Shown here piece by piece: positions 5,593 through 33,695 of a stretch of 64,000 nucleotides of DNA. Position 1 is the stretch's first letter; every line of letters begins with the position of its first letter. The notes below the pieces were generated by a model, which made no database searches, was not told the DNA's origin, and was given only the letters and a program-made list of their open reading frames with translations. Source of the DNA: Octopus vulgaris (taxonomy: Eukaryota). Both the position numbers and the translations under genes were made by a program. The DNA lies in the NCBI GenBank assembly GCA_951406725.2, contig OX597830.1, positions 2,728,001-2,792,000 of the forward strand, read 5' to 3'.

Positions 5593-5784
5593 TAAACATA
5601 TATATATAGAATGGTTGTATACTGTCAATCTAACAAGAACGTGACAGTAGGGGGTACACGACCGCTGTATAGCCCTAGGAAGCATCGAACGCCTCCTGAT
5701 AGCTTTGACACATTTTTTCCCTGTGTCCTATATAATGATAAATCTCCGAGCGAGTTATAAACAGTAGCGGTAACACATCGTGAC

Positions 5785-6016
5785 GCATATTTGCCATTTG
5801 AATATGGCTAACCTCTAAGGGTGGATGCTACTGTAGTTTGTAGCCCTCCAGCTGGCTATAGACACACTATCTGTGCCCTATCAGTATTTGTGAAGGGTGA
5901 CTTCCCTTCACAAATACTGATAGGGCACAGATAGTGTGTCTATAGCCAGCTGGAGGGCTACAAACTACAGTAGCATCCACCCTTAGAGGTTAGCCATATT
6001 CAAATGGCAAATATGC
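5785..6016. repeat. Perfect 113-bp inverted repeat with 6-nt loop (TGACTT)
   Basis: 5785-5897 is the exact reverse complement of 5904-6016; extends to 5780-6021 with one mismatch. Confidence 0.97.
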
Positions 6017-6056
<40 letters not shown>

Positions 6057-6059
6057 TTA

Positions 6060-6240
6060 CCACACATGAAAAGCAGCCAGCACACTTTGTTAAATCGTTG
6101 GTGTTAAGAACCTTGCTGCAACAGGCAACTGGAGTCTGGCCAGCTGCCAGTTGGCCAGCTCCATGTCAAACCATGCAACGCATGGCAGTATGGAAAGTGG
6201 ACATTAAACATTGATGATTATGTTGATGATGATGATGGTG
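6060..6240 (+). mobile_element. Degenerate RTE 3' tail fragment
   Basis: AAAAGCA...GTTGGTGTTAAGAA...ATGGAAAGTGGACATTAAA followed by (GAT)n. Confidence 0.6.
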
Positions 6241-6461
6241 ATATGTATAGCTAGACAGACAGACAGACAGACAGATAGACAGATAAACTGATAGACAGAT
6301 AGATAGATAGATAGTTTTCTCCAAGGATGGAAAGAATAGAATAGGTTAAACACAGACTGCAGTCGTTCCACAGGAAAGCCAGTTTGAAATATACAGAGAA
6401 CCAGGTTGGCTAATCTTCAGGTTCTGTCACCTAAAGTTATTTGCATTGTCACACGGAGATG

Positions 6462-6510
<49 letters not shown>

Positions 6511-7399
6511 GAGTGTGTGTATTTGTGTATGTATGTCTAGACAAAGTATGTCAACTGTGTTGTCTCTGTAGCTAAGACATGTGTGGTTGCTCCGTTGCTC
6601 CATTGACCTAGCAGTACATCAAACTCTTTTTTCGTTCCTGTCAATAGTTAGTGTTTCTCAATCTTATTCCTTGGATATTCTTTAAAGTCACACCCAGGAT
6701 CATCTACTTTGACCACTGGGTACTTAATAGATATTTAAATAAAAGCAAATATATTTTGTAATTAAATAGATTTTGAGTGCTAGATAATATGTTTGTTATA
6801 GGATTATTGTTCAGTAACGAAATACTCAATGAGTTTTATATTTATTACATTTTTTACTTGACATTGCTCACTAAGCAAATAAGAAAAATAAATGTTTTTA
6901 ATGTTAAAAGAACATTTTTCAAATTAAAGGTCAACTTTTGATGGCAGTTCTTCTGTTTGATCTGCAGACACACTTTTTTGAATGGACTCTTTTAAGAATT
7001 ATTTATTGTCATTTCGTATTGCAATAATCTCTGTCTTGTACATGATCTTTTCACTTTGAATATGTATTCCGATATAACTTGATGCTCAGTGACACATAGA
7101 TTGTACTCAAAATTACAAAGAATCCTGTTCTTGCATGACTAAACTGCAGACTATGACATTGTTCCATTTCCATCATTGCCTTCATCAGAACAAGATGCTT
7201 AACATGGTTAATCTTGATTTTCAAGATTAACCATATTGTTGCTAATACCCTGGAAACTTTGTATAAATCCCAATATTTCGGTTAACGAAATCCGATCCTA
7301 ATTAATTTTTATCTTCAACACTTTTGGAATGGATTTACTAAAGAGCTTGTTGGTGCTGTTCTTGGTATTTCTAGTGTGTTTTACCAAACATTAAACCAT

Positions 7400-8400
7400 G
7401 GAAATTTTCTCTATGTTCACCTTCAGAAATTCTTTCATGGAACATAAAAATTGATAAAATTTTTCAATATAGTCTCCAAGGAATAACAGGTTTACCAAAA
7501 GTTCGTATAATATTAAGTACAAAGAGCACATCTATAATTACATGCACTTTTAGATGTAAATTGGCAGAGAATGTTAAAGATAGGAAATTCACTGTTGATT
7601 AAATTGCTTTATAAAAATGGATTTTATGTTGATATTTGAAATTCATGGTAATTCCATTATTTATTGGTTTTATGAGAGAAATGATTTTGTGTGTAAAATA
7701 AGAAGGAAAATATTTCCATGATCTGAAATTGTGTGAGGATTGGGCTTCCATTAAGAAAAGGTCAAAACCATTTTGTGTCTAAAGATGCAGCCGTTTTGTA
7801 TAAATGAAGTCAAACTGCAACCACAAATTCATAAGTAAAAGAATTTGAAAAGATTCTTTATCTATTCGTGCAAATCTTAAGACAGACAGGAAATGGTATT
7901 ATTCCTTTCAAGACCATACAATGATGGAGCTTACCAAACACTAAAAGTTCGTCTTGTGTTCACCAGAGGTAACTGTGCTTCTTTTTATTCTGCATCAACC
8001 ATTCACACTTGCTTCATTAGAACTTGCCAATGTCTTCCTTGGTAAACATCTGATAAAAGACAGTTCGTTTCATTGGTGCTTTATATTTGATCAATCAGAA
8101 CATGTCATGTCCTTAATGTTTCTTAAATCCAATCTACCAACCGACCGAGAAAACAACTGAAGCCACGAAAACCCTTTTTGCATCAAAATATTTATCTTTG
8201 ACTGAAATCAAAGCCCCACATACAGCTATGTCAGCCAATCACTTCAATAAATCCCATTCTTGTAATATTTAATCTCAGTTTTCACATTTTGTTTTCTGCA
8301 GATTCCACCTCTTTGGTTTTGTTCCAATTAGAATTAGAACAACCAATAGTATCTTTGAATTATTGTTTTCTTCGTTGCATGTTCTGTAAAGTCAATGATC
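7400..8400 (-). mobile_element. Highly degraded Tigger/pogo (CENP-B-like DDE) transposase relic
   Basis: Minus-strand frameshifted pieces FSVGW*..FKKH, NET..FYQM.LPRKTLASSNEASVNG and FSLIKPINNGITMNFKYQ resemble pogo motifs (S.GWL..FK, DETGLF, TS.IQPMDQGII..FK). Confidence 0.55.
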
Positions 8401-9040
8401 CAAATTGAATTATTCTTTAGTTACTACCAAATCTGTAGTAAAGTTCTAAAGTATGAAAACTCAAGCACAAAAATAAGAAGTCTGAGACGATGCATCAAGT
8501 TCTTTCTACATATATGTTTTGCATTTAAACAAATCCATCTTTGAGAAAACACAAAGAGGCTATAGACTTAAAGCAAGCAAAGTTTTATTTGAAATTAAAA
8601 CACAATCAAAACATTTTAAGGTAAGATCACAAATATATATAAAATGTACTTGAAATTAAAATCCAATAAAATCATAAGTGTTACACAATTATTGCACATT
8701 TGGATTTAAAACGGAAATAAAGTTTTCATTGTTGCAAAGTTATCTATTATTTTATGGCAATCCACCTCAGAAGTCAATTATATTGAAATGGAGAGCAAAG
8801 CTAGACCAGATTATCTATCATGACACTTTGTAGAAATAATGTACAACTTTATTCACAAGGAGCAGGGAGAAAGTTCCATTTCTACTACAACAGACATCCT
8901 TTCTTGCTAAAGGGAAAAAATACACATCCATTCCCTGATAGTTTGGACACCAAAATACACACACACACATACACACACACATACACTTGAATATAACAAT
9001 ATACATGCTCTTTACACTTTCTAAAATGAATATGCACATA

Positions 9041-9079
9041 TGTGTGTGTATGTGTGTGTGTGTGTATGTGTGTGTGTGT

Positions 9080-9164
<85 letters not shown>
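9041..9164. repeat. (TG)n microsatellite
   Basis: Direct reading. Confidence 0.98.
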
Positions 9165-9165
<1 letters not shown>

Positions 9166-9509
9166 TAGACTACATATGTCTCCAGGATTTCCAGAAAGAA
9201 AACTATTTTGAATTTTCGTTTGGAATTGTTAAATATTCCAAGCGTATAAAATGCTTCTCTGTTTATAGAAATCATCCAAACAATTGTTAAAGAAGATTTT
9301 GCTTCATTTTTAATTATTCTACAAAACTAATCATTAATTAAAACAAATACTAATTACAGGAGAATAATGGAAGAGAACTGCTCCTATATAACAGTTCATG
9401 CATCACATACTTAATGAATTAATCTCCCAAAATGACGAGATACAACCAGAAAATATATTTGCAAGAAAAGTTCATACACTAATCCTAATTTATTTCATGT
9501 CAGCTCCCC

Positions 9510-9905
9510 CTCTCTCGCTCTCTCTCTCTCTCTCTCCCTCTCTCTCGCTCTCTCTATCTCTCTCTCACTCTCTCTCTCTCTCTCTCTATCTCTATATCTC
9601 TGTCTCGCTCTCTCTCATGCTCTCTCTCTCTCACTCTCTCTCTCTTACTCTCTCTCTTGCTCTCTCTCTTTCTCTTGCTCTCTCTCTCTCTCGCTCTCTT
9701 GCTCTCTCTCTCTCACTCTCTCTCTCTTGCTCTCTCTATCTCTCTCTCTCTCGATCTCTCGATCTCTCTCTCTCGCACTCTCTCTCGCTCTCTTTCTCTC
9801 GTGCTCTCTCTCTCTCTCACTCTCTCTCTTGCTCTCTTGTTCTCTCTCTCTCTCTTGCTCTCTTGTTCTCTCTCTCTCTTTCTCTCCCTCCCTCTTTCTC
9901 TTCTC
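9510..9905. repeat. Imperfect (CT)n tract, about 400 bp
   Basis: Direct reading. Confidence 0.98.
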
Positions 9906-10157
9906 ACATGTATTTGTATCTTTCTATGCTACATGAATTCTCCTAATTAGAAAGAGCATATGACACACTTGGTTGCAAGCTTTAGGCTAAATGCCTTCCG
10001 CCACAACTACTAATGTGGCCGTTTATGGCACACACACACACACACATACATATTATTAATTAACTACGGACTATTACACTAATTAAATGACACCTGCTAA
10101 TACATGTGAAGCTTCTTCAACTCTGTTGACAGTTTTTCTTTTCTTCATATTTCCCAG

Positions 10158-10191
10158 GTGTGGCCATTCCTTGTAATGATGGTCTTCATAG
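10158..10191 (+). CDS. Candidate 34-nt coding micro-exon (VWPFLVMMVFI-G), hydrophobic
   Basis: Pyrimidine-rich acceptor TTTTCTTCATATTTCCCAG, donor GTAAAT, open hydrophobic frame, lies in non-repeat DNA. Confidence 0.4.
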
Positions 10192-10672
10192 GTAAATAAC
10201 TGCGACTCCATTTAATTAACTTGGCTCTCAATCAGCATTGTCTCATATTCTTGATTTATTATACTTTAGCTCTTGTCATTGATTTAATAAGTAAACTTAA
10301 AGTCTATTACTCAAAGCAAAATGGTAAAGTTTATATTGAAGAGTGGAAAGGAAGCTGTTCTGCAGCAAGAATAATCAAATAACGAGCAGAATATCAGAAG
10401 TGATCTTGAATAAATAGATTTAATTTGCAAAAGTTTCTTGGATAAATTTCTAGGACTAATTGTGAGCGTGATTATCTTTCAGGGATTATCAGGATAAATA
10501 CCGAATTCTATGACGATATAAATAACTTTGTTTATTGGTAATTACCAGGACAAAGTGTATTACTATTGGAATAATATATGGTCGTTGTTTTGTTGCGAGA
10601 CATAAATTCTTGGGTGAAATAAACAAATTTAATTGGAGTGAAAAATGTAAAAAAAACCATTTCACTGAACAG

Positions 10673-10697
10673 GTTTGGCAACAATAAGTATCTTCAG
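10673..10697 (+). CDS. Candidate 25-nt micro-exon (G-LATISIF-R/S) in phase with 10158-10191
   Basis: Acceptor TTTCACTGAACAG, consensus donor CAG|GTAAGT; continues the hydrophobic frame. Confidence 0.38.
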
Positions 10698-11459
10698 GTA
10701 AGTTTTTCTTGTCACTTTTTTATATCTTTGATGTTTTATCTCCATCTTTCCTAGTATTCTTCAAGACATTTTACTTCCCATGTTTTTTTTTTTTTGTTAC
10801 TGTGTATGGTGGAGGTGTATAATATTTTATGAATCATTTCTGTTTTCGATTTTAAATAAAACCAAAAATGATATCAATCAGATAAAATATTTCAACTCAA
10901 AATTTCTTTCTTATATATATATTTTTTTCCTTAAATAAAAATACAAAAAAAAATGTTTGAAACATTTCTTAAAAGCTGTGATAAATTTTCTCAACGTTTT
11001 CACAACAAACTAAAAAAAACAAAAAACAAACTTGTTTCAGTTTTTATTTTGGAACTTGTGGAATTCTTGAAATGTCCGACTGCTGATTGAAGAATCAAAT
11101 ATTCCATTTCATTTATTCATGTTATTCCATGTTGTTGGTAAATCTATTTAACACTCCACCATCCCTTCTATGAAGTCAATGTTTTTTATAACCAAGGAAA
11201 CATTTGTGGTTTTGAACTGAAGCCAAACAAAGACACGATGCATCTGACAATGGTTCCTACCAACAACAAGGGATTAGACTGTCTGATATTTCCAGCAGAT
11301 CAGGTAGCAAATATGTTACTTTGATGAGCTACATGTTGTGTAGTGGCTTTCATCCATAATCATAAACTTGTACATTTCAGTTACGAAAGCTTTAGCTCTT
11401 CTGTTTTATATATTCTGAAAGTTGAATCACCCATGTGATGCCACTTAGCACCACTAATA

Positions 11460-11697
11460 CCTATTTCTTTACTCCCCACAAGGGGCTAAACACAGAGGAG
11501 ACAAACAAGGACAGACATAGGTATTAAGTCGATTACATCGACCCCAGTGCGTAACTGGTACTTAATTTATCGACCCCGAAAGGATGAAAGGCAAAGTCGA
11601 CCTCGGCGGAATTTGAACTCACAACGTAACGGCAGACGAAATACCACGAAGCATTTTGCCCAGCATGCTAACGTTTCTGCCAGCTTGCCACCTTTAG
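11460..11697 (-). mobile_element. Full-length tRNA-derived SINE, family B
   Basis: Minus strand has A box TGGCAGAAACGTTAG, B box GAGTTCAAATTC, central GCCTTTCATCCTTTCGGGGTCGATAAATTAAGTACCA; degenerate 17-bp TSD TTAGCACCACTAATACC / TTAGCACTACATATACC. Confidence 0.88.
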
Positions 11698-12197
11698 CAC
11701 TACATATACCATCAACTCCCTCCTCCTTCTTGTCATTGTCATCGTCATCATCATCATCATCGTTGTCATCATCATCGTCGTTATCATCATCGTCATCATC
11801 ATCATCTATATGTCTACATCCACCTTCAATGCTGGTTTAAGCTAGCATGATCACTATGGTCTCAGTCAACTTTTATTCAGTGTTCCTCTTCCCCTCCATG
11901 GGTCCAATCTCTCACACTTCACTTGTCGGTTCCATTTTCGACTTGCTTTCTATGACTGAATGACCTTTCTAACACCAAACACTTTACATAGTGTATTAAG
12001 TGCATATTTATTGTGGCACCGGCACCAGAAAGGGCCATTAACCATCAGCAACACTGAAGGTCCCCTCTTCTTTTCCACTTTATCTCTACACATCATAGAA
12101 GTGAAATAGGATTGATATCTGTTTAGGTGTTAAATCTAATTTTGTCAGGCAAATATATTCTAATCCAACTAAAATCAAAGAACCTCTAAGTCTAGAG

Positions 12198-14305
12198 CAA
12201 GGGTTCCCAGCCCTTTTATTTAAATGAGTTTTCCAAAGAGCCCCTTTTAATATGCTTGGCAAATGAAATAAGTATAAAAATGTACATTATCCATTTAATT
12301 AAAAAATTCTATATGTGGCTGAAGATCATATATTTCGACATTTTAAAACTGATGTAATACTGAGATGCTTAAAACATCTGGTGGTGTGGGCTATGGCCTA
12401 GTCAACCACATTGTAAACCAGGTAGTTCATAATGGAGTCATACCCAATGACTCCCTTATCTGGTGGGCAATGTGGAAACTGGAGATTGACGAATGATTAA
12501 TAAGGGCTGTACAGGCCCTATACAGAGAGGCTGTCAGCAAGGTTAGGATTGGCAATGAGTATAGTGAAGAATTCCGGGTAGAAGTAGGTGTCCACCAAGG
12601 TTCAGCCCTCAGTCCCCTTTTATTCATCATAGTCCTCCAGACAATAACAGAGGAATTCAAGACCGGTTGCCCCTGGGAGCTCCTCTATGCTGATGACCTG
12701 GCCCTCATACCAGAATGACTACCGGAAGTAGAAAATAAATTTCGAGTGTGGAAGCAAGGTTTAGAATCAAAAGGCCTTAGAGTAAATGTAGCAAAGACCA
12801 AAGTTATAGTAAGCAGAAAGGCGAACTCATCACACACATCCTCAGGCAGGTGGCCCTGCTCGATCTGTAGGAAACATGTAGGTAGAAACTCCATAAGATG
12901 TACCCAGTGTAAGCTATGGACACATAAGAGGTGCAGCAACATCAAAGGAAAATTAACTGATAAGATAGCTTTCATGTGCGGCAGATACACAGGGGCAATA
13001 GACACCACAGATACTCAGAAAACAGATTCCATCTCACTCCAGGGGAAGAAACTAGAAGTTGTTGATAGTTTCCGCTACCTGGGTGACCAAGTTAGTAGTG
13101 GAGGTGGATGCTCAGAGAGTGTCACCACTAGAATACGAATAGCCTGGGCAAAGTTTAGAAAGCTCCTACCCCTACTGGTGAAAAAGGGTCTCTCGCTCAG
13201 AGTGAAAGGTAGATTGTACGATGCATGTGTGCGAACCGCTATGCTTCACGGTAGTGAAACATGGGCCATGACTGCAGAGGACATGCATAGACTTGAAAGA
13301 AATGAAGCTAGCAGGATCCACTGGATGTGTAATGTCAGTGTGCACACATGACAAAGTGTAAGCGCCCTGAGAGAAATGCTGGACATAAGAAGCATCAGAT
13401 GTGGTGTGCAAGAGAGACGTTTGTGCTGGTATGGTCATGTACTGCGGATGGATGAGGAGAGATGTGTGAAGAAGTGTCATTCCCAAACAGTTGCAGGTAT
13501 CAGGTGGAGAAGTAGACCCAGGAAGACATGGGATGAGGTAGTCAAACATGACCTCAGAACATTGGGCCTCACAGAGGCAATGATGGAAGACCGAGATCTC
13601 TGGAGATATGCTGTGTCTGCAAAGACCTGGGCTGCTTCCTCCAACAGTTTTGTATAGCCCCAGCCCATCGAAAGTACCTTGGATTGCAGAACGACCTGCT
13701 GTGCTTACCTTGAATCGTAAGGTGACCTGCTGTGCTTGAGGTGACCTATTGAGTCAAGTACATCAACATCAGAATAAATATCAAATGGAAACTAGTTGCG
13801 ATACCTGTGCCGTTGGCACATGAAAAGCACCATCCGAACATGGCTGATGCCAGCGCCGCCTTGACTGGCTTCTGTGTCGCTGGCATGTAAAAAGCACCAA
13901 CCGATCATGGCCGCTGCCAGCCTCCCCTGGCACATAAAAAACACCCACTACACTCATGGAGCAGTTGGTGTTAGGAAGGGCATCCAGCTATAGAAACACT
14001 GCCAGATCAGACTGGAGCCTGGTGCAGCCTCCTGGCTTCCCAGACCCCAGTTGAACCGTCCAACCCGTGCTAGCATGGAAAACAGACGTTAAACAATGAT
14101 GATGATGATGATGTAATACTTACAGTGTTTAATAAAATGAAGTAGCATGAAACGATTGTACTACACTACCTTGGATATCCTTGTTGCTTATTTTGATTAT
14201 GTATATATATGTAAATATATATGAAATTTTGAATTTAGTGCCTGGACCCCAGTACTACCTTTGCAGACCACCAGGGGTCTATGAATTCCAGGGTAGGAAC
14301 CACTG
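12198..14305. mobile_element. Old hAT (Charlie-like) MITE interrupted by an RTE insertion
   Basis: Imperfect TIRs CAAGGGTTCCCAGCC / GGGTAGGAACCACTG; 8-bp TSD-like GTCTAGAG / GCCTAGAA. Confidence 0.45.
12362..14113 (+). mobile_element. 5'-truncated, internally deleted RTE LINE with RT motifs, 3'UTR, (GAT)n tail and 12-bp TSD
   Basis: EMLKTSGGVG..IPND, GVHQGSALSPLLF, LLYADD (~12680-12697), FRYLG, RLCWYGHVLRM; TSD TGATGTAATACT at 12350-12361 and 14109-14120. Confidence 0.95.
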
Positions 14306-14529
14306 GCCTAGAAAGAAAAGGCAAACAAGAGAAAGAGAGAGAGGGGAAAGAAAGGGGGAAAGAGGGGTGTCTATTATAATTGCAACTCTGCTAAAGGAAC
14401 CCAAGGGGCAGGAAGAGGTGTCAGACTGGGAGACAGCTTCAGTCTACCCCTCGTAGGGCGTCAGTGGGATGCAAACGCCAAGCACAAAAAGCTGGAACAA
14501 ATAATACAAAGTAGCAATGGAACATTCTA

Positions 14530-14670
14530 GCAATTCTATACTAGACTGGTAAATTATTTATCAACCCCAAGGAGGATGAATCATAAAATTGACATGGGTA
14601 AGATTTGAGTCCAGAATCTAAGAGAGAGTGTTTTGTCTAACACTCTACTGGCTCTACCATTTTGCCAGAA
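14530..14670 (-). mobile_element. Degenerate SINE family B
   Basis: ACTGGTAAATTATTTATCAACCCCAAGGAGGATGAA similar to the 11460 copy. Confidence 0.55.
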
Positions 14671-14712
14671 GATCTGATATCAAAGCACCAATAATCAAAT
14701 AATATTATCTAT

Positions 14713-15165
14713 ATGGTGTAAGGTGTGATTGTATGGTTAAGAAGTTTGCTTTCCAATCATACAGTTTTGGGTTCAATCTCACAACACAGCACCATGGATA
14801 ATTTCTTTTCTATTGTATTCCTGGGGCAGAAAAAAGCCTTGTGAATGGGTTTAGTAGATGGAAAGAGTAAAAAGCCTATTGAGTGCATGTGTGTGTGTGT
14901 GTGAGTGTGTGTGTGTGAATGTGTGTGAGTATGTGTGTGTGTGAGTGTGTGAGTGTGTGTGTGAATGTCACCCTGCCATTGTCTTGCCATCATGCTATGG
15001 CTGTGAACAAACGTCCATATCATACAAGTGCTGTCATTCACTTCCAATCTTCCATGAATAACATGTCTCATCATGGAGAAAATAACACCTTGTTCAGAAA
15101 CAGGTGAAGGAAAAGACCACCTCAGCAAGTTGCATCTGATCCATGCAAGGTGCTTGTTGAAATGA
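14713..15165 (+). mobile_element. Diverged SINE with family A head and a different 3' half ending in (GAT)n
   Basis: A/B-box-like head (GGGTTCAATCTC), AAAGCCTTGTGAATGGGTTTAGTAGATGGAAA, internal (TG)n, ATCCATGCAAG..(GAT)n end. Confidence 0.65.
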
Positions 15166-15430
15166 TGATAATGATGAAGATGATGATGATGGGGACAAGG
15201 AGGAGAAGTAGGAGGAGGGTAGTGGTGGTGGTAATGTTTGTGGTGGCGGTGATGATGATGATGATGATGATGATGGTGGTATATTTCCTGCTCTCCATCA
15301 ATCCTACAGGATTTGTTTCAAAATTCTAGTTCTGTGTGATTTCTTTCCATGCCACCCACCTAATAAACTACAATTATTTACGAATTTACAAATCTCCACT
15401 GCCCTCTCACCCCTCTCTTGCCCATCCCCA

Positions 15431-15472
<42 letters not shown>

Positions 15473-15854
15473 TCTCTCCCTCCCTCTCATTCTCACTCAG
15501 TTCTTTTTTCTTCTCTTCACTGAAGGACAGTTGAGATTTCCTTTATAGAACTGGAATTGGTGGAAAACCAGGTGCTTGAAACACATTACACTTTTCAATA
15601 TTTGGAACAGTTGCCAAATGAAGCCACTGACACAAAGAGATAGCCGAGCCATTGCCAAATTTGGAGCAGTTGGCATTGTTACCAAAAACATAACATATTA
15701 CCGCCAGTGAATCACCATAATCATTCCAAGGAAAATAAATTATATTTATTCCAAGTTAAGACAAATAAATTTCAATGTTAAATTAGGTGAGATGCTGATG
15801 ATAGTGTTAATTATTACGTTGATTAAGAGGGGAAAGTCAGTGGTGGTAGTGAAG

Positions 15855-15916
15855 AAGATGATGATGATGATGATGACGACAACGACGACGATGATGATGA
15901 AGATGATGATAATGAC

Positions 15917-15962
<46 letters not shown>
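15855..15962. repeat. (GAT)n trinucleotide tract
   Basis: Direct reading. Confidence 0.95.
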
Positions 15963-16620: not shown

Positions 16621-16740
16621 TTAAGGTAGCAGAGAGTTGTGTCTGAAATATAGTAAATATAGATGTTGAGATCTTGGCGAAAATTGTGGTTCCACACCAA
16701 AATAAGTGAGTGTGAAAACAACTGATGTAAAGAAGAGTTA

Positions 16741-17141
16741 GGAGTAAAGATTACTTGCCAACATAACATGGCAGTCCTGGTTTAGGACGAATGTTGCTGT
16801 AATTTAGCCCCAGGAGACATCCTCTCCATCTGGCTATACAACACGATCTGTGTCCTTATATTTTCAAACAAGGCAATCTCGCACCCCCACTCAGCTCAAA
16901 ACAATATCTGTGTATCTCGATTTCCGGGTTATTTCCCTTCATCAGCACAGAATAAATGTTTAGCTAGAGGTGGCGCTGCCAAATTCCCATTCGAAATATA
17001 TAGTTTTCCCTTGTTCGAAAATGTAAGGACACAGATCGTGTCATAAAGCCAGCTGGAGAGGATGTCTCCTGGGGCTAAATTACAGCAACATTCGTCCTAA
17101 ACCAGGATGGCCATGTTATGTTGGCAAACAATATTTACTCC
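16741..17141 (-). mobile_element. Penelope-like non-autonomous element: 133-bp inverted repeats flanking a hammerhead motif
   Basis: 16741-16873 is near reverse-complementary to 17009-17141; the spacer holds a hammerhead motif; arms are homologous to 33560-33695 and to the 5785 hairpin. Confidence 0.75.
16907..16951 (-). ncRNA. Minimal type I hammerhead ribozyme motif
   Basis: TCTGTG-CTGATGA-AGGG AAATAA CCCG-GAAA-TCGAGA-TA-CACAGA: 6-bp stem I, intact CUGAUGA and GAAA boxes, AUA triplet; first stem II pair mismatched. Confidence 0.75.
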
Positions 17142-17314
17142 AAAATACTGTTGTGAGATTTAAAAATAGTAATTTTCTAAAGAAGAGTTAATTACAAAGT
17201 GATAATGATAATGACTGGTATTCCTTCGTTTAGTAAATGTTTTCAGTAATTGGATTATGGCCATAGTTGAGTACTGCTTTCCTGGGTTTAGTAATTGATA
17301 TCGGCCCCCGACCA

Positions 17315-22228: not shown

Positions 22229-22448
22229 GTTGTGTCTGGAGAGAGACATTCTCTTTCGGTGCCTTATAATTTAACACACTCACCGGTAAAATTTCCACTT
22301 TTTTATTTTTCTAAAATTTTCGCTTTATTGAAAGGGTTGCAAGATGCAATGAAAATTTCTAGGAAAATAAAAAAGAAAGAAGTGGAAATTTTACTGGTGA
22401 GTGTGTTAAACTATAAGCCACCAAAAGAGAATGATTCTCCCCACAACA
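22229..22448. repeat. Palindromic MITE-like element, arms about 95 bp
   Basis: TTTAACACACTCACCGGTAAAATTTCCACTT versus AAGTGGAAATTTTACTGGTGAGTGTGTTAAA. Confidence 0.85.
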
Positions 22449-25400
22449 GAATATTTTCAACACATGAACTCACATAAAGAATCTTGCAAACCAAATCCAA
22501 AAACCAAATGGCTGAATAGCTCCAAAGAAATTCATCAAAGAGCAAGTGTTCATGGAAAAAACATGCTACTGAATTTAAGGAAGAGTAATTCAAAGAAGTG
22601 AGAGAAATGCCAATATCTCAAAGAATACACCAGACAAATAAGACAGACCAAACGAGAGATGGCTGTGCCAACTTGCCCTAAATCATGCAGGAATTTATCT
22701 AACTTTAATGATACAAGGCAACTTGTTTCACCAGATAGAATTATTGGCACCAAATGGAAATGGCAGAACACCATGCTGCACCTGTGTTTAGTTTTAAAGA
22801 CTATGAGCTGACGAGTAAGCAAGCTTGTTCCTTAAGATACTCTCAGTTTGTACAACAAAACTAACGAGAGAAACACAGGAAGTACATCAGGAATTTTATG
22901 GTTACCCCACGGAAATTGATGATGCTAAAACCAGACACTGTCTTGTACGCATGCAGACAAGAACATAAAACCTTCTCATGTTCAGTGATGGAGATACAAC
23001 TTTCTGGAGACTGACATTTTGGGTAAGTAGAACTGGGAACAAGGGTTTGAATAAGGGGTCTGTGGAGTAAAGAGAATGGATAGGGTATAATAGAAAGAGG
23101 GATTAGTGAATCAGGAGTAATTGAGGGGAGGTGACACAAGGGCAACCAGTGTGGAGAAGTGGACGCCATTGTAGTAATGATAAAAATATATAAAAAGGTG
23201 ATGCAGCAAATTTTTGGTTAAGAAGTTGGTGAGTTTGTTGCTTGATGGCTGAACTATTATGACAATGAGGGAGAGAGAGAAAGAGAGAGCAAGAAAAACA
23301 AACAGCAAGAGAAAGAGAGATAGAGAGAGAGAGAGAGCAAGAGGAAGAGAGAGGGGAACAGAGAGCAAGAAAGGGAGAGAGAGAGAGAGGAAGAAAGAGA
23401 GAAGGGGGCGGAGGGAGCATCTATGTACTTCAGGGAAGAGAATCGCTGAAGTACATTAGAAAGTACATTTTCCTCTCAGGGGAAGGAAAGAGGAAAGAAA
23501 AGAGAAGAGCATCCATGTTTTATCGTAAGATGTTTTATTATTACCTGAATATTCATGAATAGTACTATTTCAGCTTTGTTGATGTGTGTTGTTGACTAGT
23601 TTTTATGCCTCTCAGCTCGATGGACATATAGAAGGATGTCTGTCTGTATGCACAGCAGTAGCACCACCCATCATTGGATTAGTGAGAGCCTTTGTGAAGG
23701 GAAGCCTGCCTTTGTTATGCGGTCTTTGATATTTTGGACATTTGGAAGTTCATCAGTATAGACCCAGGTTCATATATATTTGTTATGTATATGTATAGTA
23801 TTTTAATAAAATTTAGTACCAAAACAATATGCATTCCTTTGTATCTCTTTCATGTTTCCCCAAGGAATTAGAAAATATATTTGTCCTTCCTCCTCAGGCT
23901 TTGGACAAACTGAAAAGAAACATTCCAAGTAGAAAAACCAGCTGAACTGCTGAATAACAATAGAGAAAAATTTAATGCTTATTGGAATATATTCCATTAT
24001 ACTTTAGCAGGCACCATTAATTATTTATCAAATCTGAAGTTATCATTTAGCAAATGTTTCACCAAATTACAAGATTTCAATATTGCAAGATTTCATAAAG
24101 ATTGAGTTTGTAGACATTTTCAAGTTTGTTCATTTAGTAATTTTCTAATAATGAAATCAACATTTATTAAGATCAATTTCCAAATATAATTTATGACTTG
24201 AAATCAGCAACTAAGATTTACAAATTTATTTTATCAGAATGTGCTTGTTTGCAGTTTTCTTGCAAGAGACACAGACATGGGAATAAGCCAGCATTTAAAA
24301 ATGAATATCTGTTTGTACTTTGAACATTTTCACAGAATTACCAATTGTGAAGTCAAGGTAGAGCCACAAGGCAGAACTGAAGTTGTTTTATATTTTGGCC
24401 CAAGGTCCCAGCATAGTTAATAACATTGCTGAATATTATATTGGCTGAAATTAGGTCTTGCATAGCAGAATCCCCTAAGGACACTGTTTTATTCATAAGC
24501 ATCACTGAACTATCATCAAACTGATTCAAAAAGAGAATTTAGTGTAATAAAAGGAAGACATTTATTACTATTTTACAAAAATATATTAAATATTTTCAAT
24601 AATATATATTCAATATTTCACTGTGATAAAGGAACATAATTTTGGAAAACATTCTTGTTGTATATTAAGTATTTTCTATAATAGAAACCAGCTCCAACAA
24701 AGGAACAACTTGTGTGACAATATTACACAAATAAATCTAATATTGTGGATAAAATTGTTGCTGCCACAATGGTGAGATATCAGTTCTGTTTTTGCAACAA
24801 TATATTTGATATTCTGAAAAAGAAGTGAAAATCTCATGATAATATGAAGGTCAATTAATTCGTTCAGCTAGTTTCCTTCCATTTCCCCAAAACAGAATTC
24901 TCAGAGTAATAATAGTGCCAGAAACCAGTTTGGAACATATAAATTGCACAGGATTGACAAAAAATGTGTAAATATAATAAAAATGGCCAGAATAGTACTT
25001 ATGAAACCTGAAATGTGGATAGAAACACTGTGACGAGCATATATATACAGTATATACATATATATATATACATATACATATATATGCGTGTGTGTGTATG
25101 TATGTATGTGAAGGTGGAATAAATGTGCTTTAATTACAAATAACAACAGTTGCTTCTGTGCAGTGACAACAGCTTTAATTTGCCGAGTTTCCAGTTTCAC
25201 ATTACATGAAATTCCTTTATAAATAATTACATAAAGAAATATAGTGCACCAACAACTGTGTGCTGGCACATCATCAGGTAGAGTGTTTCTAAAGCACTGC
25301 ACAGAGACAAATGTAATTTGAAAATTAGAGACTGTTTTTGTCCATTTTCTTGTTACATAAATTTTTACTTTTAAATTTATGCAGTAATGGTGTTCCACAT

Positions 25401-26044
25401 TTATCCAGCTCTATGATGGCATATTGTAGATGATAACAGCAGAGAGGCTTTTAAATGCATGTTACGAAATTATTAAGCAGATAAAATTTAATGTGTGTGA
25501 ATGTGTGTGTGTGTATGTGTGAGTGAGTGAGTGTGTGTGTGTGTGTGTGTGTGTATACATACACCACATTCATTTGATGTATTTTGCCACCAAAAGAGAG
25601 GGTACTCAAAACACACTGAAGAGTGGTAAATTTATAATTTTAAACAGAATTACTTTGATGTATAACTTGTGTTTCTTTCATATGCTGTCTTGATGCAGGT
25701 AGTTTATCTCACCCGACTACGACGAGAGGCAATTGAATTCCTTAGATTCAAATGAAGTCTCAATTGTTAATTTTGCAATGATTCCATCTGAAAAAGTAAG
25801 TTTAAAGAACAAGATTTATACAAATCAAACGCATAAACATAACCTGAAGAACAAAAATAGAGAAAGTCACAGAGATATAAAAGACCTTTCATACGACAAC
25901 TCCACTCCTCTAATGTCAAACAGACTTCTACATGCTTCACACTCTGATACCATTCTTAACATAGAATCCTACACCAAACCAATATTGTAAGTTACTCTGT
26001 TGCCACCCCCAACACCATCCGAGTTAATTTACCCACACCATGTC

Positions 26045-26445
26045 TTTTATCTTTAACTTGTTTCAGGCATTAGACTGTGGCCATGTTGGAGTGCCACCTT
26101 GAAGAATTTGAATCAAAGAAATTGACCCCAGTACGTACGTTTTTAAAGCCTGGCACTGATTTTATCAGTCTCTTTTGCTGAACTGCTAAGTTATAGGAAC
26201 ATAAACACACCAAAACCAGTCGTCAAGCAGCAGTGGGGGACAAACACAGACACAAAGACTCACACACACACACATGCTAGGCTTCTTTCAGTTTCCATCT
26301 TTGAAATCCACTCACAAGGCCTTGGTCAGACCGAGGCTATAGTAGAAGACACTTGCCTAAACTGCCATGCAGTGGGACTGAACCTGGAACCATGTGGCTG
26401 GGAAGCAAACATCTAACCACATAGCTACACCAGTGCCTATATGCC
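26045..26445 (-). mobile_element. SINE family A copy
   Basis: Collinear with 4416-4835 (GACTGTGGCCATG..., AGTAGAAGACACTTGCC..., GGGACTGAACC). Confidence 0.85.
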
Positions 26446-27075
26446 ATGCCTGCACCTAAATTACCAACACAGCACAACCATCCAATAATACTGAATGGGA
26501 ACTGTATGAGTTCAAATGCCTGATTTTCAACCCCCAAAAAAAGAATTAGTATATCTGTCAGTACTTCTTCCTTGCTCAGTCTAAAAGAATGGTCTGTTTT
26601 AATGGGTTTTGCAGACTTCTAAGCTTGGTGAAATTCTTAATGTTAATCTTCTACTTGATCTCCTGGAGTGAAAACAAAAACAGAGGGAAGTTCTCTTGTG
26701 TCAGCATTCTGGAGAAGAAGGAGTGTGGAGGGAAGGTTAGTGCATGTTCTGTAGGGGTTTTGGTTATGGGAAGAGAAAATATGAGGGAGCTGGAAGAACC
26801 TGAGTGAAAACAGCCAACTTTGAGGAGCAGAGGCCATTAGCGTTATGGTAGATTGTCTGAGACTGGTGACAACTTGTCACATGTCAGAGTGAGAGAGGCT
26901 GGAGGATGTCTGTGAATGACTTTACCTCACTTAGTCAAATATATTCGATGTTTTACATAAGGCAGCTTTATTCCAACGAAACCTTGAATCTGAGCAAAAG
27001 CTATATCCCACTTCTTCCTCATTCTTGTCTTTCACATCATTGCCCTCCTCCTCCCCATCCTCTTCCTCTTGCTCC

Positions 27076-27107
<32 letters not shown>

Positions 27108-27140
27108 CTCTTCCTCTTGCTCCTCCTCCTCCTCCTCGTG

Positions 27141-27179
<39 letters not shown>

Positions 27180-27589
27180 ATATTACTACAAAATAGGACC
27201 CACATTTTCTTTTTAATGCTCAATAAGCCTATTTAATGGAATTTCAAAGTCCCAATCAACTCAGTTGTTAAAATAAGTAAAAACAATTGACTGTACACCA
27301 TGTATTGAGTCCTTACTTCAGTTAATGCTTTATGTTTTTAGATGTTAAGAAACATTAAACCTATATATACACTCATACATATTCACACACACACACACAC
27401 ATATATAAATACATTCCTACCTGCATACACATACACATACATTGATGCATGCCTAAATACACACTGTCAGGCAGACTGACAGATCTGTCTTGACGTACAC
27501 AGGAAAGCCTTGTCACTTTGTTAGTGACTGTCTTGAAGTCTACAAAAAAGAAATGCATTTGAAATAAACATAAAAGAAACATGCATTCG

Positions 27590-27707
27590 TGCATATATGT
27601 ATACATACATATACACTCACATATATACATACATTAATACATATGTACATGTATATGCATATTTATATGTCCACACACACACACACATATATCTATCTAT
27701 CTATCTA

Positions 27708-27752
<45 letters not shown>

Positions 27753-28180
27753 GTATATGTATGTATATATACTCGTAGAAGCATGTATACACATACATAT
27801 TTACATATTACATGCATACACATACACATATGCAGCCACATATAAGCATACATGCTACATATATACATACATACATACATACATACACACATACATACAT
27901 ACATACATACATACATACACACGTACGTACATACATACATACATACAAACATACATACATACAAACATACATACATTCATACACACACACATACATATAT
28001 ACACACATACATACATACATACATACATACACACATACATACATGCATACATACATACATAGATGTATACATACATACATAGATGTATACATACATACAT
28101 ACATACACACATACATACATGCATACATATATACATACATAGACAAACACTTATATGCCTAGCCATACACACACACGTAG
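27590..28180. repeat. Compound (TA)/(CA)/(TACA)n microsatellite region
   Basis: Direct reading. Confidence 0.95.
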
Positions 28181-28749
28181 CTGTTCAGTGATCTCCATGG
28201 AATGTAAATAGGAAACAAATTTTTCTGGTTACTGATAATATTATCACAATTACTTAACATTTAACTTGAAAAAACCAAATCACAAGTGAATCATAAGACT
28301 TACTGCAGCCATCACACTTTACAAAACAATGCTAATTTCATTGTAACTTCTTTTATTGTATTTTATATTTATTTATTTAACATCTCTTGATTTTGATTTT
28401 GCAGTAAGTTTTCAATTCCAAAGTTAAATAATAGAGAGAAAAAGAAAAGAAAGAAGCAAATTAGCAGAATGGAAATGAAAAATCTGAGGCCATTATTGAT
28501 CAAACCATGAGTAAAATGGAATCTTAAATCCAATTCCATATGATTTAGATAAACTAGTTCAAGATTTATTTAAAAGAAAATGAAAAAGATGAGATTAGAA
28601 ATTAAAAAAGAAAAGACAGCAACACACACGACGACAACAACAACAACAACAACAATGGCACTAAGAACTGACAACAAACGATTTCCTTCTTTATTGGGAT
28701 TACTCTAAGAAGATTAGTGGATTAGGTTTATATTCTTGAGTCTAACTTC

Positions 28750-28750
<1 letters not shown>

Positions 28751-28838
<88 letters not shown>

Positions 28839-28885
28839 AAGGAGGAGGAGGAGGAGGAGGAGGAGGAGGGCAACAACAATGACAA
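28751..28885. repeat. Compound (AAT)n-(GAA)n-(GGA)n-(CAA)n microsatellite
   Basis: Direct reading. Confidence 0.95.
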
Positions 28886-30445
28886 CTAAAATTAGAAAAG
28901 GAATTTTTTTCCTTGAATATATCTGGTTAATTTAGTATGTTTGATGTTCTAAATGTCTACGGTTTTCATTTTACCATTTTCTGCTGCATTTGGCATTGAG
29001 TGCTGAAGAAACACTAAATATTATCACAAGAATCTTGCAGGCTTAAATTCAAAGTCAAAATGTGAATTCAAAAGCAAATAATTCAAACCTTGATATATTA
29101 CAGGATACACAAAGCGATTCGAAGAGATTAAAAACCTGCAGACTTCAAATTGAAATCAGGAAGTACAGGTCTGTCAAATCCAGTTTGCCATTATAAGAAT
29201 GGAGGAGTATTTTGTTAATTAAAATAATTACAAGAAATCAAGTGATTAAGTAGTAATTATTTTCAGTTTGTCTAGTAGTTTTAGAGACATACTCATAGTA
29301 TGTTTTGGAGAACAGGACATTTTCACAGCCATCTAACCAATATTCTTCAACTATTGGGTGGTCAGATAAGAACTTCAGTATGTCAAAGATTAAGACAAAA
29401 ATGGAGAAGGTACAAGAACTGGTAACATGAAGAACTTGGATCCAAGTTGGAAATGTTCATTCTGGTATAAAGAAAAACTGTTCAGGCAAGGTCTATAATT
29501 ATTTTGATTAAAATATCACAATCAGTTGAACCGACAGAGATAACGATGCAGCCATAATAAGAGATTTCTTGAGTAAGGTTGTAACAATGCAAGAAGATAA
29601 AAAAAAGAACATACAAATAAAAAAAAAAAAACAAAACAAAGTTGTAGTTTTGGTTTATATTTCTATATTTCAGGGCTGTGACCCCTTCATGATGTCATGT
29701 GTAGAAAGGGAGGAATGGAAAAGATCAATGAGTCTGGGAGGAAGGTGGGAGGTGACATGCATATCTTCTATTTCTCTCTGTATGTATATGTGTGTGTATG
29801 TATGTAGAGTGAGATGAGAATCCTTTAAGCAGTGGCTAGTGGGAATGCCAGATGCATTTCTGCTTCTTTGAGCTCTATCAATGGTATGGAATGACAGCCA
29901 GCCTCATGCTTAGACAAGATATGCCTTGGTTGATAGAGAGGAATGAAGAAATAAAACAATCACTGGATCAGTCTCTGTGAGATGTTTTCTCTGGATGAAC
30001 ATCACAGCTAATTGCCTTCCAATGATATATTTGCATTAGGTATGATGCGTGAAAGGCTTCAATTAGATGTAATAGATTTTTATTCAGCTGGTCAACTATT
30101 TGAAAGACTAATGGCAATTTTATTCCCAGTTGCCTCTATATAGGGGACAAGCCTTAGATGTGAGTGTACATCGTTGATAGAGGGCATGAGGCAGAAATGC
30201 ATCTGGTAATTGAGAAGCCAATGTTGGAACGATTTTCATCTCCCTCTGGTTTATTTTGTTCTTAAATAAAGCAAGTCTATAAGTGATGTTATCTCTGAAC
30301 AAATATCATAATAAATTGCCTTTCAAAGGTGTATTTAGATTAGGTATGATGTATAGATGGTTCTTTTAAGTCAATACTGCTTGAATTGCATATAACAGAT
30401 GTGTGTGCGTGTGTGTCATGCTAAAACGAGATAATAATGATGTTG

Positions 30446-30476
<31 letters not shown>

Positions 30477-31175
30477 CATATACATATACATATATATATA
30501 CATATACATATATATATACATATACATACACACCTACACACACTCATACATACATTTATATAGAAATATATATATGCATAAATACATGAATGTATCTATA
30601 AACAAAGACACACACACACACACATCCACACACACACACATATCTCCACACACACTCAATTACGTACTCACACACATATGCAATCAGATTTGGTAACTGA
30701 TTTCTTTTCCATTTCAATGCTAAGTCTATTTGGAAATGTATTAAAGTGAATAATTTCTACCTAAAGGTAAACTATGTGAATAGAAATGACACATTTTGAC
30801 CTTTGTATTAAACAGATGAGATTAGGGCGAAGAGGAGGGTGGGGAACTGTTCAAATATTCAATCTAATTATTGGCTTCCTTCAACATTGTCAATAAGGAA
30901 TATGAATTCAGCAACACCTGGGTTTTTCCCCCCAAAGTCTTAGTAATAAAATATTTTATATCAGATCTCTGAGTTACAATTGATATGTTGCCTGCTTTGT
31001 GTTTGGTTTCTGTTTCTCTATCTTATTTATTTATTTATCAGCTTGTATAGGTTTTAAAAAGTTTCTTGTAAATATGGTAATTATGGGAGATCTTTAAACA
31101 CAAAAACAAAATATTTGGTGAAGAAAAAGGATCATTAATGGTGTCTTGATAAAATAGAACAGATATATATATACC

Positions 31176-32458
31176 ATCATCATCATCATTTAACGTCCGC
31201 TTTCCATGCTGGCATGGGTTGGACGGTTCAACTGGGGTCTGGGAAGCCAGAAGGCTGCATCAGGCCCAGTCTGATCTGGCAGTGTTTCTACAGCTGGATG
31301 CCCTTCCTAACGCCAACCACTCCGTGAGTGTAGTGGGTGCTTTTTATGTGCCACCGGCACAGGTGCCAGATGGGACTGGCAGACGGCCACGATCGGATGG
31401 TGCTTTTTACGTGCCACCGGCACGGGGACCAGACAAGGTTGGCAACGACCACGGTCGGATGGTGCTTTTTTTGTGCCACCGGCATGGAGGCCAGATGGGC
31501 GGCGCTGGCTACAGCCACATTCAGATGGTTCTCTTACATGCCACCGGCACTGGTATCACAGCTACAAATTCCATTGATGTTGATAGATTACGATTTTGAT
31601 TTTGATTTTGATCTTCACTTGCCTCAACAGGTCTTCACAAGTGGAGTTTTGTGTCCCAAGAAGGAAAGGAATGCATAGGTGGGCTGGCTACATCCCAGGT
31701 GTAGGCCACGGGATTATGGCCTCACTTGTCCTGCCGTGTCTTCTCACGCACAGCATAGGTCTCGGTCTCTAGTCATTTCCTCAGTGAGACCTAAAGTTCG
31801 AAGGTTGTGCTTCACCACCTCATCCCAAGTTTTCCTGGGACTACCTCTTCCACAGGATCCCTCTACCGCTAGGGTGTGGCACTTTTTCACTCAACTATCT
31901 TCATCCATTCTCGCCACATCCATACCAGCGCAAACGTCTCTCTTGCACACCACAACTGATGCTTCTTAGGTCTAACTTTTCTCTCAAAGAACTTACACTC
32001 TGTCGAGTATGAACACTGACATTACACATCCATCGGAGCATACTGGCTTCATTTCTTGCAAGCTTACGCATATCCTCAGCAGTCACGGCCCATGTTTCAC
32101 TGCCATGAAGCATAGCTGTTCGTACACATGCGTCATACAATCTGCCTTTTACTCTCAGCGAGAGGCCTTTTGTCACCAGCAGAGGTAAGAACTCTCTGAA
32201 CTTTTCCCAGGCTATTCTTACTATAGCAGTTACACTTTCAGCGCACCCGCACCCGCTGCTGACTTGGTCACCTAGGTAAAGGAGGCTATCAACTACTTCT
32301 AGTTTTTCTCCCTTGAATGTGGCGGAAGATGGTCTCTGCATATTTTCAGTGTTTATTACTCCCGAGCATCTGCCACATACAAAAACTATTTTCCTAGTTA
32401 GCCTTCCTTTGACATTGCTGCACCTCTTATGTGTCCATAGCTTACACTTGGTGCATCA
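31176..32458 (-). mobile_element. 5'-truncated RTE LINE (different subfamily at the C-terminus/UTR junction)
   Basis: ORF 31901..32341 (KGLSLRVKGRLYDACVRTAMLHGSETWA), 3'UTR repeat array, (CAT)n at 31176. Confidence 0.92.
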
Positions 32459-32512
32459 TATATATATATACATATATATACATACATGGAAGACAGACGT
32501 TTAACGATGATG

Positions 32513-32559
<47 letters not shown>

Positions 32560-32562
32560 TAT

Positions 32563-33255
32563 GGTGTGAACAAGCACAGGTGAGGTCCCTCCTGAACCTC
32601 ATCAACACTTTGTACATGGAACAAATAGTACACCAGCCAACCAGGGCAGGTAACATACTGGATCTCTGCTTCACAAATAATATGGATCTCATCCATAATG
32701 TGAAAGTGACACCGATGCTACTCTCGGATCACAACATGGTAGAGCTGACCATGTACGCGCCAAAAGAGAGCACGGACATGCAGCCTACAAGAAACCCTCA
32801 GAATCTTTCCAGCTTGAACTTCCATAAGGCAAACTGGAGACAAATTGAGAAAGAGATTCTCAAACAAAACTGGTCTAAATGTCTCTCCTCACCGGACATC
32901 GACATGAAACTTCAACAATACATGTCTGTAATGCAAGTCATATGCTACAAATGTGTCCAGGAGAGAATGTTCACAAGAACAAAATCCCCAGGGAGAGAAA
33001 AATTCTTATGAGACGGTGAACAAAAGCTTCAAATTGCCTAAGCAAACAGATTGAAAGCAGTGAAAAGTCCCACCTGAAAATAAAACTGTTGGAAATTGAA
33101 AAAAGTTTGCAACTCTCCCATGAAAAAGAAAGAGCAGAGAGCAGACAAAGATACCTGGGCTATAGACAATATAAAATCTAACCCCACAGCTTTCTACAAG
33201 TTTGCCAAAGAAACAGCTTCCGTGCACTGCAAGATTGGGCCACTCCTAGAAAAAT
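32563..33255 (+). mobile_element. CR1/L2-group LINE fragment (end of APE endonuclease plus linker)
   Basis: ORF 32580..33011 QIVHQPTRAGNILDLCFTNN...LSDHNMV...NFHKANW; downstream NIKSNPTAFYKF..IGPL. Confidence 0.85.
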
Positions 33256-33695
33256 ATGGCCTCTTGGAGCTAATCAACGGCAGCATTCATCCTATATTTC
33301 TGGACTGACATATTAGCTTGGCGATAAATATTAATATTCAGTACCGCTGCCGTAGTCTCCTTTAGAGAGACTTAGAAATATTAATATTTCTACTTTTGAA
33401 AACCAATGGATGTATTCCACTGAATTTAGGTAAATAATCCTTCGAACAGACGGTCTGTAGTGATGCCTGCTGGGTTCGGCTGCTCTGCATTGATGAAGGG
33501 CAAATACCCTGAAACTAGTCTGCAGATGCCTGACCAGCAAGGGGAAGTGGCTGACCTCCCCTGTTCGAAGGATATAATGGACACAAGTTCATGTGTCACA
33601 TAGATAGCTAGAGGCGATGGCCTCTTGGAGCTAATCAATGGCAGCATTTGTCCTATATTTCTGGACTGCCATATTAGCTTGGTGATAACTATTAA
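33256..33695 (+). mobile_element. Retrozyme/Penelope pLTR-like unit: 361-bp monomer plus 79-bp terminal redundancy, with hammerhead motif
   Basis: 33256-33334 repeated at 33617-33695 with few mismatches; hammerhead motif at 33484-33526. Confidence 0.75.
33484..33526 (+). ncRNA. Minimal type I hammerhead ribozyme motif (C3U variant)
   Basis: TCTGCA-TTGATGA-AGGG CAAATA CCCT-GAAAC-TA-GTC-TGCAGA: perfect stems I and II, palindromic ACTAGT stem III, GUC triplet. Confidence 0.8.

Follow-up and report, generated by a model that had tools for sequence, protein, structure and literature searches.

Octopus hammerhead repeats with a covarying head domain and two 3′ ends that are almost always paired long with short in inverted insertions

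Introduction

Non-LTR (long terminal repeat) retrozymes of animals are, in the descriptions given by Cervera and de la Pena 2020 (PMC7229834) and Li et al (bioRxiv 10.64898/2026.07.22.740005), non-coding tandem repeats with monomers of ~350 nucleotides (nt), dispersed as monomers to multimers; their type I hammerhead has a short, often palindromic stem III, their fold is stable and self-paired, and Penelope-like elements (PLEs) coexist with them. Endonuclease-positive PLEs, for their part, are described as leaving partial tandems, an adjacent inverted and 5′-truncated copy, and a tail at one end only, and as inserting into microsatellites or AT-rich targets with duplication of the target (8-10 bp in rotifer examples; PMC8557442, PMC3846280). 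In vitro, a PLE protein is reported to use two internal start sites that define the tail and to cut AT-rich DNA on both strands; hammerhead cleavage was dispensable, a dimer was predicted, and the later steps of insertion were left unvalidated (PMC11167929). Here, a 64,000-nt stretch of the Octopus vulgaris genome (positions 2728001-2792000 of contig C17 in genome G000, 2.8 Gb in 227 contigs), in the following called the window, is analyzed. Its sequence is rich in microsatellites and carries, at four places, copies of hammerhead repeats that resemble both of these systems.

Results

Inverted copies almost always combine one long and one short 3′ end

The repeats are short non-coding units arranged head to tail with periods of 352-365 nt, of which dimers and trimers were seen. 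The window contains four subfamilies, A, B, C, and D, with a mutual likeness of 60-72%, which belong to a superfamily of ~350-365-nt type I hammerhead repeats; in tandem copies, the monomer measures 361 nt in A, 353 nt in B, 352 nt in C, and 365 nt in D, and 357 and 360 nt in further ones. A first look at the genome, with one family for each of the four places in the window, gave 2714, 2195, 1706, and 1647 candidates, of which 40 per family were scored. A tight pattern (hammerhead core, 60-70 nt, then GGRCAC) occurred at 3011 places genome-wide versus 47 with the reversed control, and also yielded further subfamilies; a second pattern with a longer gap gave extra ones and is unusable as a copy count.

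Each subfamily has two fixed 3′ ends, ~42-57 nt apart. The short end falls into what is predicted to be an A/C-rich single strand inside the multiloop of a branched head domain; the long end probably lies just behind the helix closing that multiloop and the next hairpin. The ends were mapped at 202 loci, duplicates (L062, L087, L091, and L153) having been dropped before counting, and L155, L160, L162, and L174 were discarded as chance hits of the pattern that gave no match. The 205 resulting clusters comprise 109 inverted and 96 one-orientation ones. Both ends could be classified in 91 of the 109 inverted clusters: 90 were long+short, one was long+long, and none was short+short. The one-orientation clusters ended short in 56 cases, long in 35, and otherwise in 5. 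When only the pattern-drawn loci were considered, the combination was long+short in 34 of 35, and it was found in all nine additional inverted loci recognized by eye or on the BLAST map (L315, L324, L332, L334, L368, L369, L371, L372, and L374), as well as in three of the four pairs that had been split by clustering. Loose ends at the same two positions were also present on contigs of runs X16 and X18, which bear other organism labels; on such contigs, the joint between tandem monomers is indistinguishable from that of a circle. Thus, with rare exceptions, a long end in one arm of an inverted copy is matched by a short end in the other, which amounts to a near-strict rule.

Among the inverted loci, L315 (positions 1700-3900) is a very young insertion with approximately three 360-nt monomers per arm, only 0-2 differences among the four units compared, a short left and a long right end, and TA runs as flanks.

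The head domain covaries

When monomers of A, B, C, and D were folded alone, a common plan was predicted, consisting of the hammerhead, a long rod formed by its flanking sequence, and a branched head; only in subfamily G, among those folded, does the head appear to fold partly otherwise. For two real copies, the z values of folding were -4.1 and -5.5. The type I hammerhead (stems I-III plus core, with a 5-bp stem I) was present in 5/5 references and in both window copies, stem III being palindromic in three of the five references, and core variants are U3-A8 in A and C4 in D. The ~130-nt module that an earlier note on the window had proposed as one conserved unit corresponds to the branched head plus the rod base of this predicted rod-and-head RNA; the CCCTTGTTCGAA motif is placed by the predicted fold at the rod base, outside the head, and both homology and predicted fold extend beyond the module over the whole monomer.

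Covariation was assessed after 21 copies had been aligned with MAFFT by sequence only. RNAalifold predicted 16 pairs on this alignment, 11 of them with two-sided change. Across the five named helices, 91.5% of 540 cells pair, versus 37-49% in controls with slid partners. Two-sided changes occurred in 6/8 pairs of the helix closing the multiloop (spanning ~63 columns) and in 4/6 pairs of the inner hairpin of the head. The GACAC/GTGTC stem, said earlier to persist despite divergence, is indeed conserved in sequence, with two-sided change in 0/5 pairs. When 21 matches, including 13 at loci that had played no part in model building, were aligned by fitting them to the covariance model, 14/26 pairs had two-sided change, a figure to be read with the leaning of such an alignment towards its model. 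G-U wobbles are kept on the sense strand. Covariation is therefore strong in two head helices and absent from the GACAC/GTGTC stem, which bears out the proposal of hammerhead-linked mobile repeats with a conserved structured 3′ domain. A second catalytic RNA is neither shown nor needed.

An Rfam search with the window and seven loci returned no hammerhead and no real family; all hits stayed below threshold, and most came from microRNA-precursor models that had matched hairpins and microsatellites. No Rfam model matched the head at gathering score either. A pile-up of 5′ ends at the predicted hammerhead cleavage site was looked for among 271 arms, and there was none.

Four subfamilies at four places in the window

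When the window was searched at E<=1 with a covariance model built from 21 genomic relatives, there were seven matches, all at the four places; as the model was trained on close relatives of the window copies, this demonstrates common membership and is no independent discovery. The matches are as follows:

5728-5882, minus strand
5919-6070, plus strand
5590-5727, minus strand
16696-16859, minus strand
17023-17173, plus strand
33212-33385, plus strand
33575-33702, plus strand

When the insertions are delimited by their ends, the following features result:

5607-5733, minus strand: subfamily D copy, 5′-truncated at its own internal TA-rich site, short 3′ end
5734-5897, minus strand: subfamily C left arm, long 3′ end, with 5734-5780 as unpaired tail
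5898-5903: junction loop between the two C arms, 6 nt
5904-6021, plus strand: subfamily C right arm, short 3′ end
6022-6051: (TA)n run, insertion site
16728-16740, plus strand: 13-bp target-site duplication of the B insertion, left copy
16741-17008, minus strand: subfamily B left arm, leading from the short 3′ end (16741) through the branched head, the 3′ strand of the rod, and the hammerhead to the 5′ strand of the rod
16908-16950, minus strand: type I hammerhead motif in B, with 5-bp stem I, CUGAUGA core, stem II, and GAAA
17007-17179, plus strand: subfamily B right arm, long 3′ end, 17 nt of the tail deleted
17178-17190, plus strand: 13-bp duplication of the B insertion, right copy, overlapping the element end by 2 nt
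33256-33698, plus strand: subfamily A partial tandem, 5′-truncated, short 3′ end, followed by a TA run
33485-33525, plus strand: type I hammerhead motif in A, here with UUGAUGA core, and palindromic stem III
33579-33698, plus strand: branched head in the final unit of A, ending with the short end

The four places hold copies of four different subfamilies and not one element in four architectures. The module of the earlier note is real, and all seven model matches lie at the places it had named. Its two hammerheads, at 33484 on the plus and 16907 on the minus strand, with the module ~35 nt further 3′, were recovered as motifs 31-34 nt 5′ of a CCCT(T)GTTCGAA motif. In the A copy, cleavage is predicted after position 33520, and the core reads UUGAUGA, versus UUGAUAA in most A copies; in the B copy, the palindromic loop III is mutated. 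The supposed direct repeat is a partial tandem, namely 1.2 turns of the 361-nt monomer. The supposedly perfect hairpin at 5785-6016 consists of 117 bp around a 6-nt loop and is interrupted by a mismatch at 5784; its left arm goes on as an unpaired tail to 5734. The diverged solo copy at ~5640-5730 does exist; it spans ~5607-5733 and is a 5′-truncated D copy beside the C insertion. D is an independent truncated copy, and the TA run at D's 5′ end is most likely where C landed later.

Similarity between the loci, which had been expected to be significant pairwise, was so for most combinations. Within the window, BLAST paired 33484-33682 with 16951-16758 (66%, E ~1e-12) and linked neither the hairpin nor the solo copy to this pair. 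Global alignment against 300 shuffles gave z 11-14 for A-B, ~9 for B-C, 3.4-4.1 for A-C, A-D, and B-D, and 0.7-0.9 for C-D, the latter not being significant alone.

The B copy is an inverted insertion with a short left and a long right end inside a 13-bp duplication. In C, the left end is long and the right one short, and the hairpin layout results from the arms being joined near the rod base; both arms share a private 15-nt deletion. The A insertion lies directly 3′ of a LINE-like (long interspersed nuclear element) reading-frame fragment: window positions 32900-33255 hold a degenerate, ORF2-like (open reading frame 2) piece with no visible continuation on the 3′ side of the insertion.

Target sites and kinship of the arms

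Direct and inverted forms were found in each of the four subfamilies. Non-simple duplications of at least 9 nt flank 35 of 90 inverted copies versus 3 of 300 shuffled flank pairs, and 18 of the 35 measure 12-13 nt; among one-orientation copies, such duplications were present in 7/96. Runs of (TA)n adjoin 40/63 C ends and 39/60 D ends, and only 2/92 B ends. Overlaps at the junction of the arms peak at 2-3 nt. None of the 109 inverted pairs mixes two of the four lineages. Shared non-consensus variants within arm pairs amount to 0.80 (B), 1.04 (C), and 1.19 (D) per 100 sites; between loci, the values are 0.44, 0.16, and 0.18, respectively. The arms usually differ at several sites, the spacers between them range from none to several monomers, and 72 of 271 arms continue upstream into the tail of a preceding monomer.

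Penelope-like elements in the same genome

The monomers contain no reading frame for reverse transcriptase (RT) plus GIY-YIG endonuclease, which means that the repeat is itself no autonomous PLE. Loci for the partner search were 66 from a GIY-YIG search and 30 from a Poseidon-type RT pattern, including a few chance hits; these 96 were scanned with the head model, and sixteen further Neptune 5′ regions (L269-L284) were read directly. In every PLE family of which the 3′ region was read, that region was the family's own and lacked the head. L187, which at first resembled a PLE carrying the module, has it as a separate insertion 1.3 kb behind the stop codon. In L252, a truncated PLE has a dimer of type C next to it, with TA runs at the borders of the dimer, and L310 holds a separate A fragment.

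The GIY-YIG search brought up intact PLEs with a 781-amino-acid (aa) frame for RT plus GIY-YIG endonuclease, which, to judge by the zinc-finger linker, are probably of the Neptune clade. The two Neptune-type families examined have two 3′ ends each, 38 and ~32 nt apart, and insert in TA runs, and both loci with the two arms in view are long+short. One Neptune family has a short stretch, GCAGCATT, in common with subfamily A, and in the Neptune family this stretch is able to form pairs that bridge both ends (z -2.3); this likeness is only a lead. One Neptune-type family (L177, L178, L271, and L273) has many copies in which the 781-aa frame is open and follows a separate upstream frame. It also has a hammerhead-like motif with U3-A8 core, as in subfamily A, and a potential 13-bp helix that would bridge both 3′ ends as well as the first start codon. 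An old Poseidon-type family (L285-L314), found by motif pattern, gave 142 motif hits with broken frames; it has its own hammerhead-like 3′ repeat and short, internally deleted forms.

No PLE protein match was found in the window. Among the 202 module loci, PLE proteins matched at four, three of them at a distance of at least 470 nt and the fourth being L004, and at none was the match continuous in sense with the monomer. In L004 (positions 1197-1352 and 1903-1986), the left neighbor of an A copy is an inverted RT fragment from a different PLE family, and a GIY-YIG fragment lies on the right; this is either a nested insertion or a chimera.

A gag-only LINE-like element resides in the rod

The only non-monomer 5′ flank shared among the 96 one-orientation copies is a 1.7-kb LINE-like insert. 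It has a gag-like frame of 453 aa that weakly matches a zinc knuckle (E 0.06), and no RT was found in the copies seen. The 3′ end of the insert was used to fetch 30 loci. In every one of these, the rod target is present ~35 nt before the hammerhead, either as such or in a short, diverged form; 21 of them continue into the retrozyme and nine into another tandem copy of the LINE-like element. The insert thus uses a single rod site, with short duplications and tandem arrays there, and its subfamilies track the host subfamilies D, A, E, and H-like. Related LINE-like families (81-83% protein identity) had other targets in 11 of the 15 examined. The rod-inserting element is absent from the window, and examples elsewhere are:

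L336, positions 77-1438
L192, positions 1671-3340
loci L335-L376

Target-specific LINEs of the Tx1 clade are described as inserting into other transposons, Tx1L into Tx1D and a crocodilian Tx1 into Mariner-N4 (PMC4494074). Like these, the octopus element makes short duplications and tandem arrays at a fixed site in another mobile element; unlike them, it targets the rod of a hammerhead retrozyme, and it is known here without RT, the copies seen having the gag-like frame only. It is a passenger or parasite of the retrozyme, not its mobilizer.

Other features of the window

An imperfect palindrome of 207 nt at 22237-22443, unrelated to the module, recurs in L114 and L149 and is possibly a miniature inverted-repeat transposable element (MITE). 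Words resembling the hammerhead core at 45839 and 57165 on the plus strand and at 60578 and 7188 on the minus strand have no matches in the fetched loci and are probably due to chance. More old inverted repeats, with 68-75% identity, lie at 2318-3151, 5009-5593, 33759-33975, 50642-50897, and 52384-52955.

Discussion

The copies are best regarded as non-coding hammerhead repeats of ~350-365 nt, that is, non-LTR retrozymes, which were probably inserted in trans by the RT and GIY-YIG endonuclease of a PLE. Both fixed ends lie in or just behind the head, which fits an RT signal. The head may accordingly be pictured as the putative binding platform of the PLE protein, and the two 3′ ends as the points at which this protein would begin reverse transcription. 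The enzyme, probably a dimer, would nick both strands ~13 bp apart, and one complementary DNA (cDNA) would be begun at each site, on an uncleaved multimer or a circle from one source. If both cDNAs were joined over a microhomology of a few nt, an inverted copy or hairpin would result; if a single one became fixed, the outcome would be a direct or solo copy. A more far-reaching version can be put forward only tentatively: that the hammerhead RNAs evolved a docking head of their own, unrelated in sequence to the terminal repeats of PLEs, which would seat two subunits of the borrowed Penelope-type enzyme at the two start sites and prime both ends of the 13-bp staggered cut at once, always long+short, and that these RNAs are parasitized by the rod-targeting LINE-like element, diverging alongside.

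Several points weigh against insertion by a PLE in the manner proposed. An end was unclassifiable in 18 of the 109 inverted clusters, and the fourth pair split by clustering, in L100, with a spacer of 440 nt, is short+short. The tail of ~42-57 nt exceeds the published 30-40 nt. The predicted cleavage site is crossed by 182 of 271 arms, but this count is inflated because loci were picked for their likeness to the window or for having an intact hammerhead. The two-sided changes in the head were tallied per sequence, in ~8-10 lineages, and are not independent events. Sharing of variants between arms was not significant in subfamily A (4 pairs), and where it was observed, it shows a common subfamily or source and not one RNA molecule, much of it being subfamily structure. 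Lastly, no autonomous PLE with the head as its terminal repeat, as had been envisaged, was found in the 96 loci scanned with the model, in which the only strong hits (L134, L187, and L252) are all separate insertions; the GIY-YIG candidates scored for this search were a small sample.

The copies could instead be ordinary 5′-truncated ends (pseudo-LTRs) of autonomous PLEs which escaped the search; the head would then simply belong to the terminal repeat of such PLEs or to the beginning of the PLE frame. Only 150 of 6136 GIY-YIG candidates were scored, most PLE copies are reportedly 5′-truncated (PMC8557442), and frog retrozymes are said to match PLE pseudo-LTRs (bioRxiv 2026.07.22.740005). Yet the 72 of 271 arms that extend upstream lead into the tail of the preceding monomer and not into a reading frame, L315 has about three near-identical monomers per arm, the sole common foreign 5′ flank of the one-orientation copies is the gag-only insert, and PLE proteins were near only 4 of 202 module loci, three at least 470 nt off, plus L004. 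We regard such an origin as quite unlikely. It is also doubtful that the head is conserved because the RNA needs it for its own life (circularization, stability, export, or viroid-like RNA-to-RNA copying), with the ends marking where its structure permits RT to start. A viroid-like rod with a branched head was predicted in every subfamily examined, and animal retrozymes are described as accumulating as circles (PMC7229834); however, the two ends keep the same structural positions in subfamilies with a likeness of only ~60-70%, and passive pausing would not yield their long+short pairing. A role of the head in the life of the RNA and one in docking the PLE protein can coexist.

The remaining alternatives concern the second arm. 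Fold-back self-priming on one cDNA or on an antisense template, or homogenization after insertion, might generate it; the former has been proposed for inverted repeats of PLEs (PMC3846280), strand switches are favored by a rod that makes sense and antisense partly alike, and the private 15-nt deletion in both arms of the window hairpin is in keeping with such an origin. On the other hand, a copy of a short first arm cannot gain a tail of 42-57 nt, a copy of a long one has no evident cause to halt at the short site, and the variable spacers and the differences between arms also speak against it. We consider this route rather improbable. Inverted arms, target duplications, and TA-rich sites are also what MITE-like DNA transposons with terminal inverted repeats would display. 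This reading is extremely unlikely, given the unequal arm ends, the variable junctions, the conserved hammerhead motif, and 5′ ends permuted around a tandem monomer, and the one-orientation (96 of 205 clusters) and tandem copies rule out a MITE-like identity. Insertion in trans by a PLE protein is retained as the preferred explanation.

Any model of PLE insertion must meet three observations: one long and one short end, a stagger of 12-13 bp, and both arms from one lineage. The long+short rule would make the mechanism by which a Penelope-type enzyme pastes in such repeats testable, and the short, abundant, and divergent repeats are a natural alignment that outlines the RNA structure at both start sites. 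Furthermore, the insertion signature ties animal retrozymes to the PLE machinery beyond co-occurrence or likeness in sequence.

Compared with what is known, the repeats are of a known kind, namely non-LTR retrozymes with PLE-type insertions, and the four layouts seen in the window are ordinary for PLEs. The fold-backs on integration that the earlier note had postulated do match the published insertion layout (PMC8557442, PMC3846280) and are thus not new. PAc of Anolis (PMC11167929) offers a parallel to the two putative internal start sites, which there, too, belong to an A/C-rich structure 3′ of the hammerhead. Unlike endonuclease-positive PLEs, the repeats have no reading frame, their tail is ~42-57 instead of 30-40 nt long, and their duplications mostly measure 12-13 bp; unlike for the frog retrozymes, no PLE pseudo-LTR matching the monomer was found here, and the repeats are known here from genomic copies. 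For animal non-LTR retrozymes, the cited texts, as far as they cover the subject, mention neither a covarying domain common to them nor two fixed 3′ ends nor an inverted layout (the word "inverted" occurs 0 times in PMC7229834), and a tail at one end only is presented as optional or frequent in described PLEs versus 90/91 here. A full-text literature search retrieved nothing on cephalopod retrozymes, a covarying retrozyme head, or a LINE that targets retrozymes; supplements, Repbase, or Dfam may already list the families. Relative to the literature, three things are apparently new: the covariation of the head together with the position of both ends on it, the near-strict pairing of long with short, and the insertion of a gag-only LINE-like element at one site of the rod.

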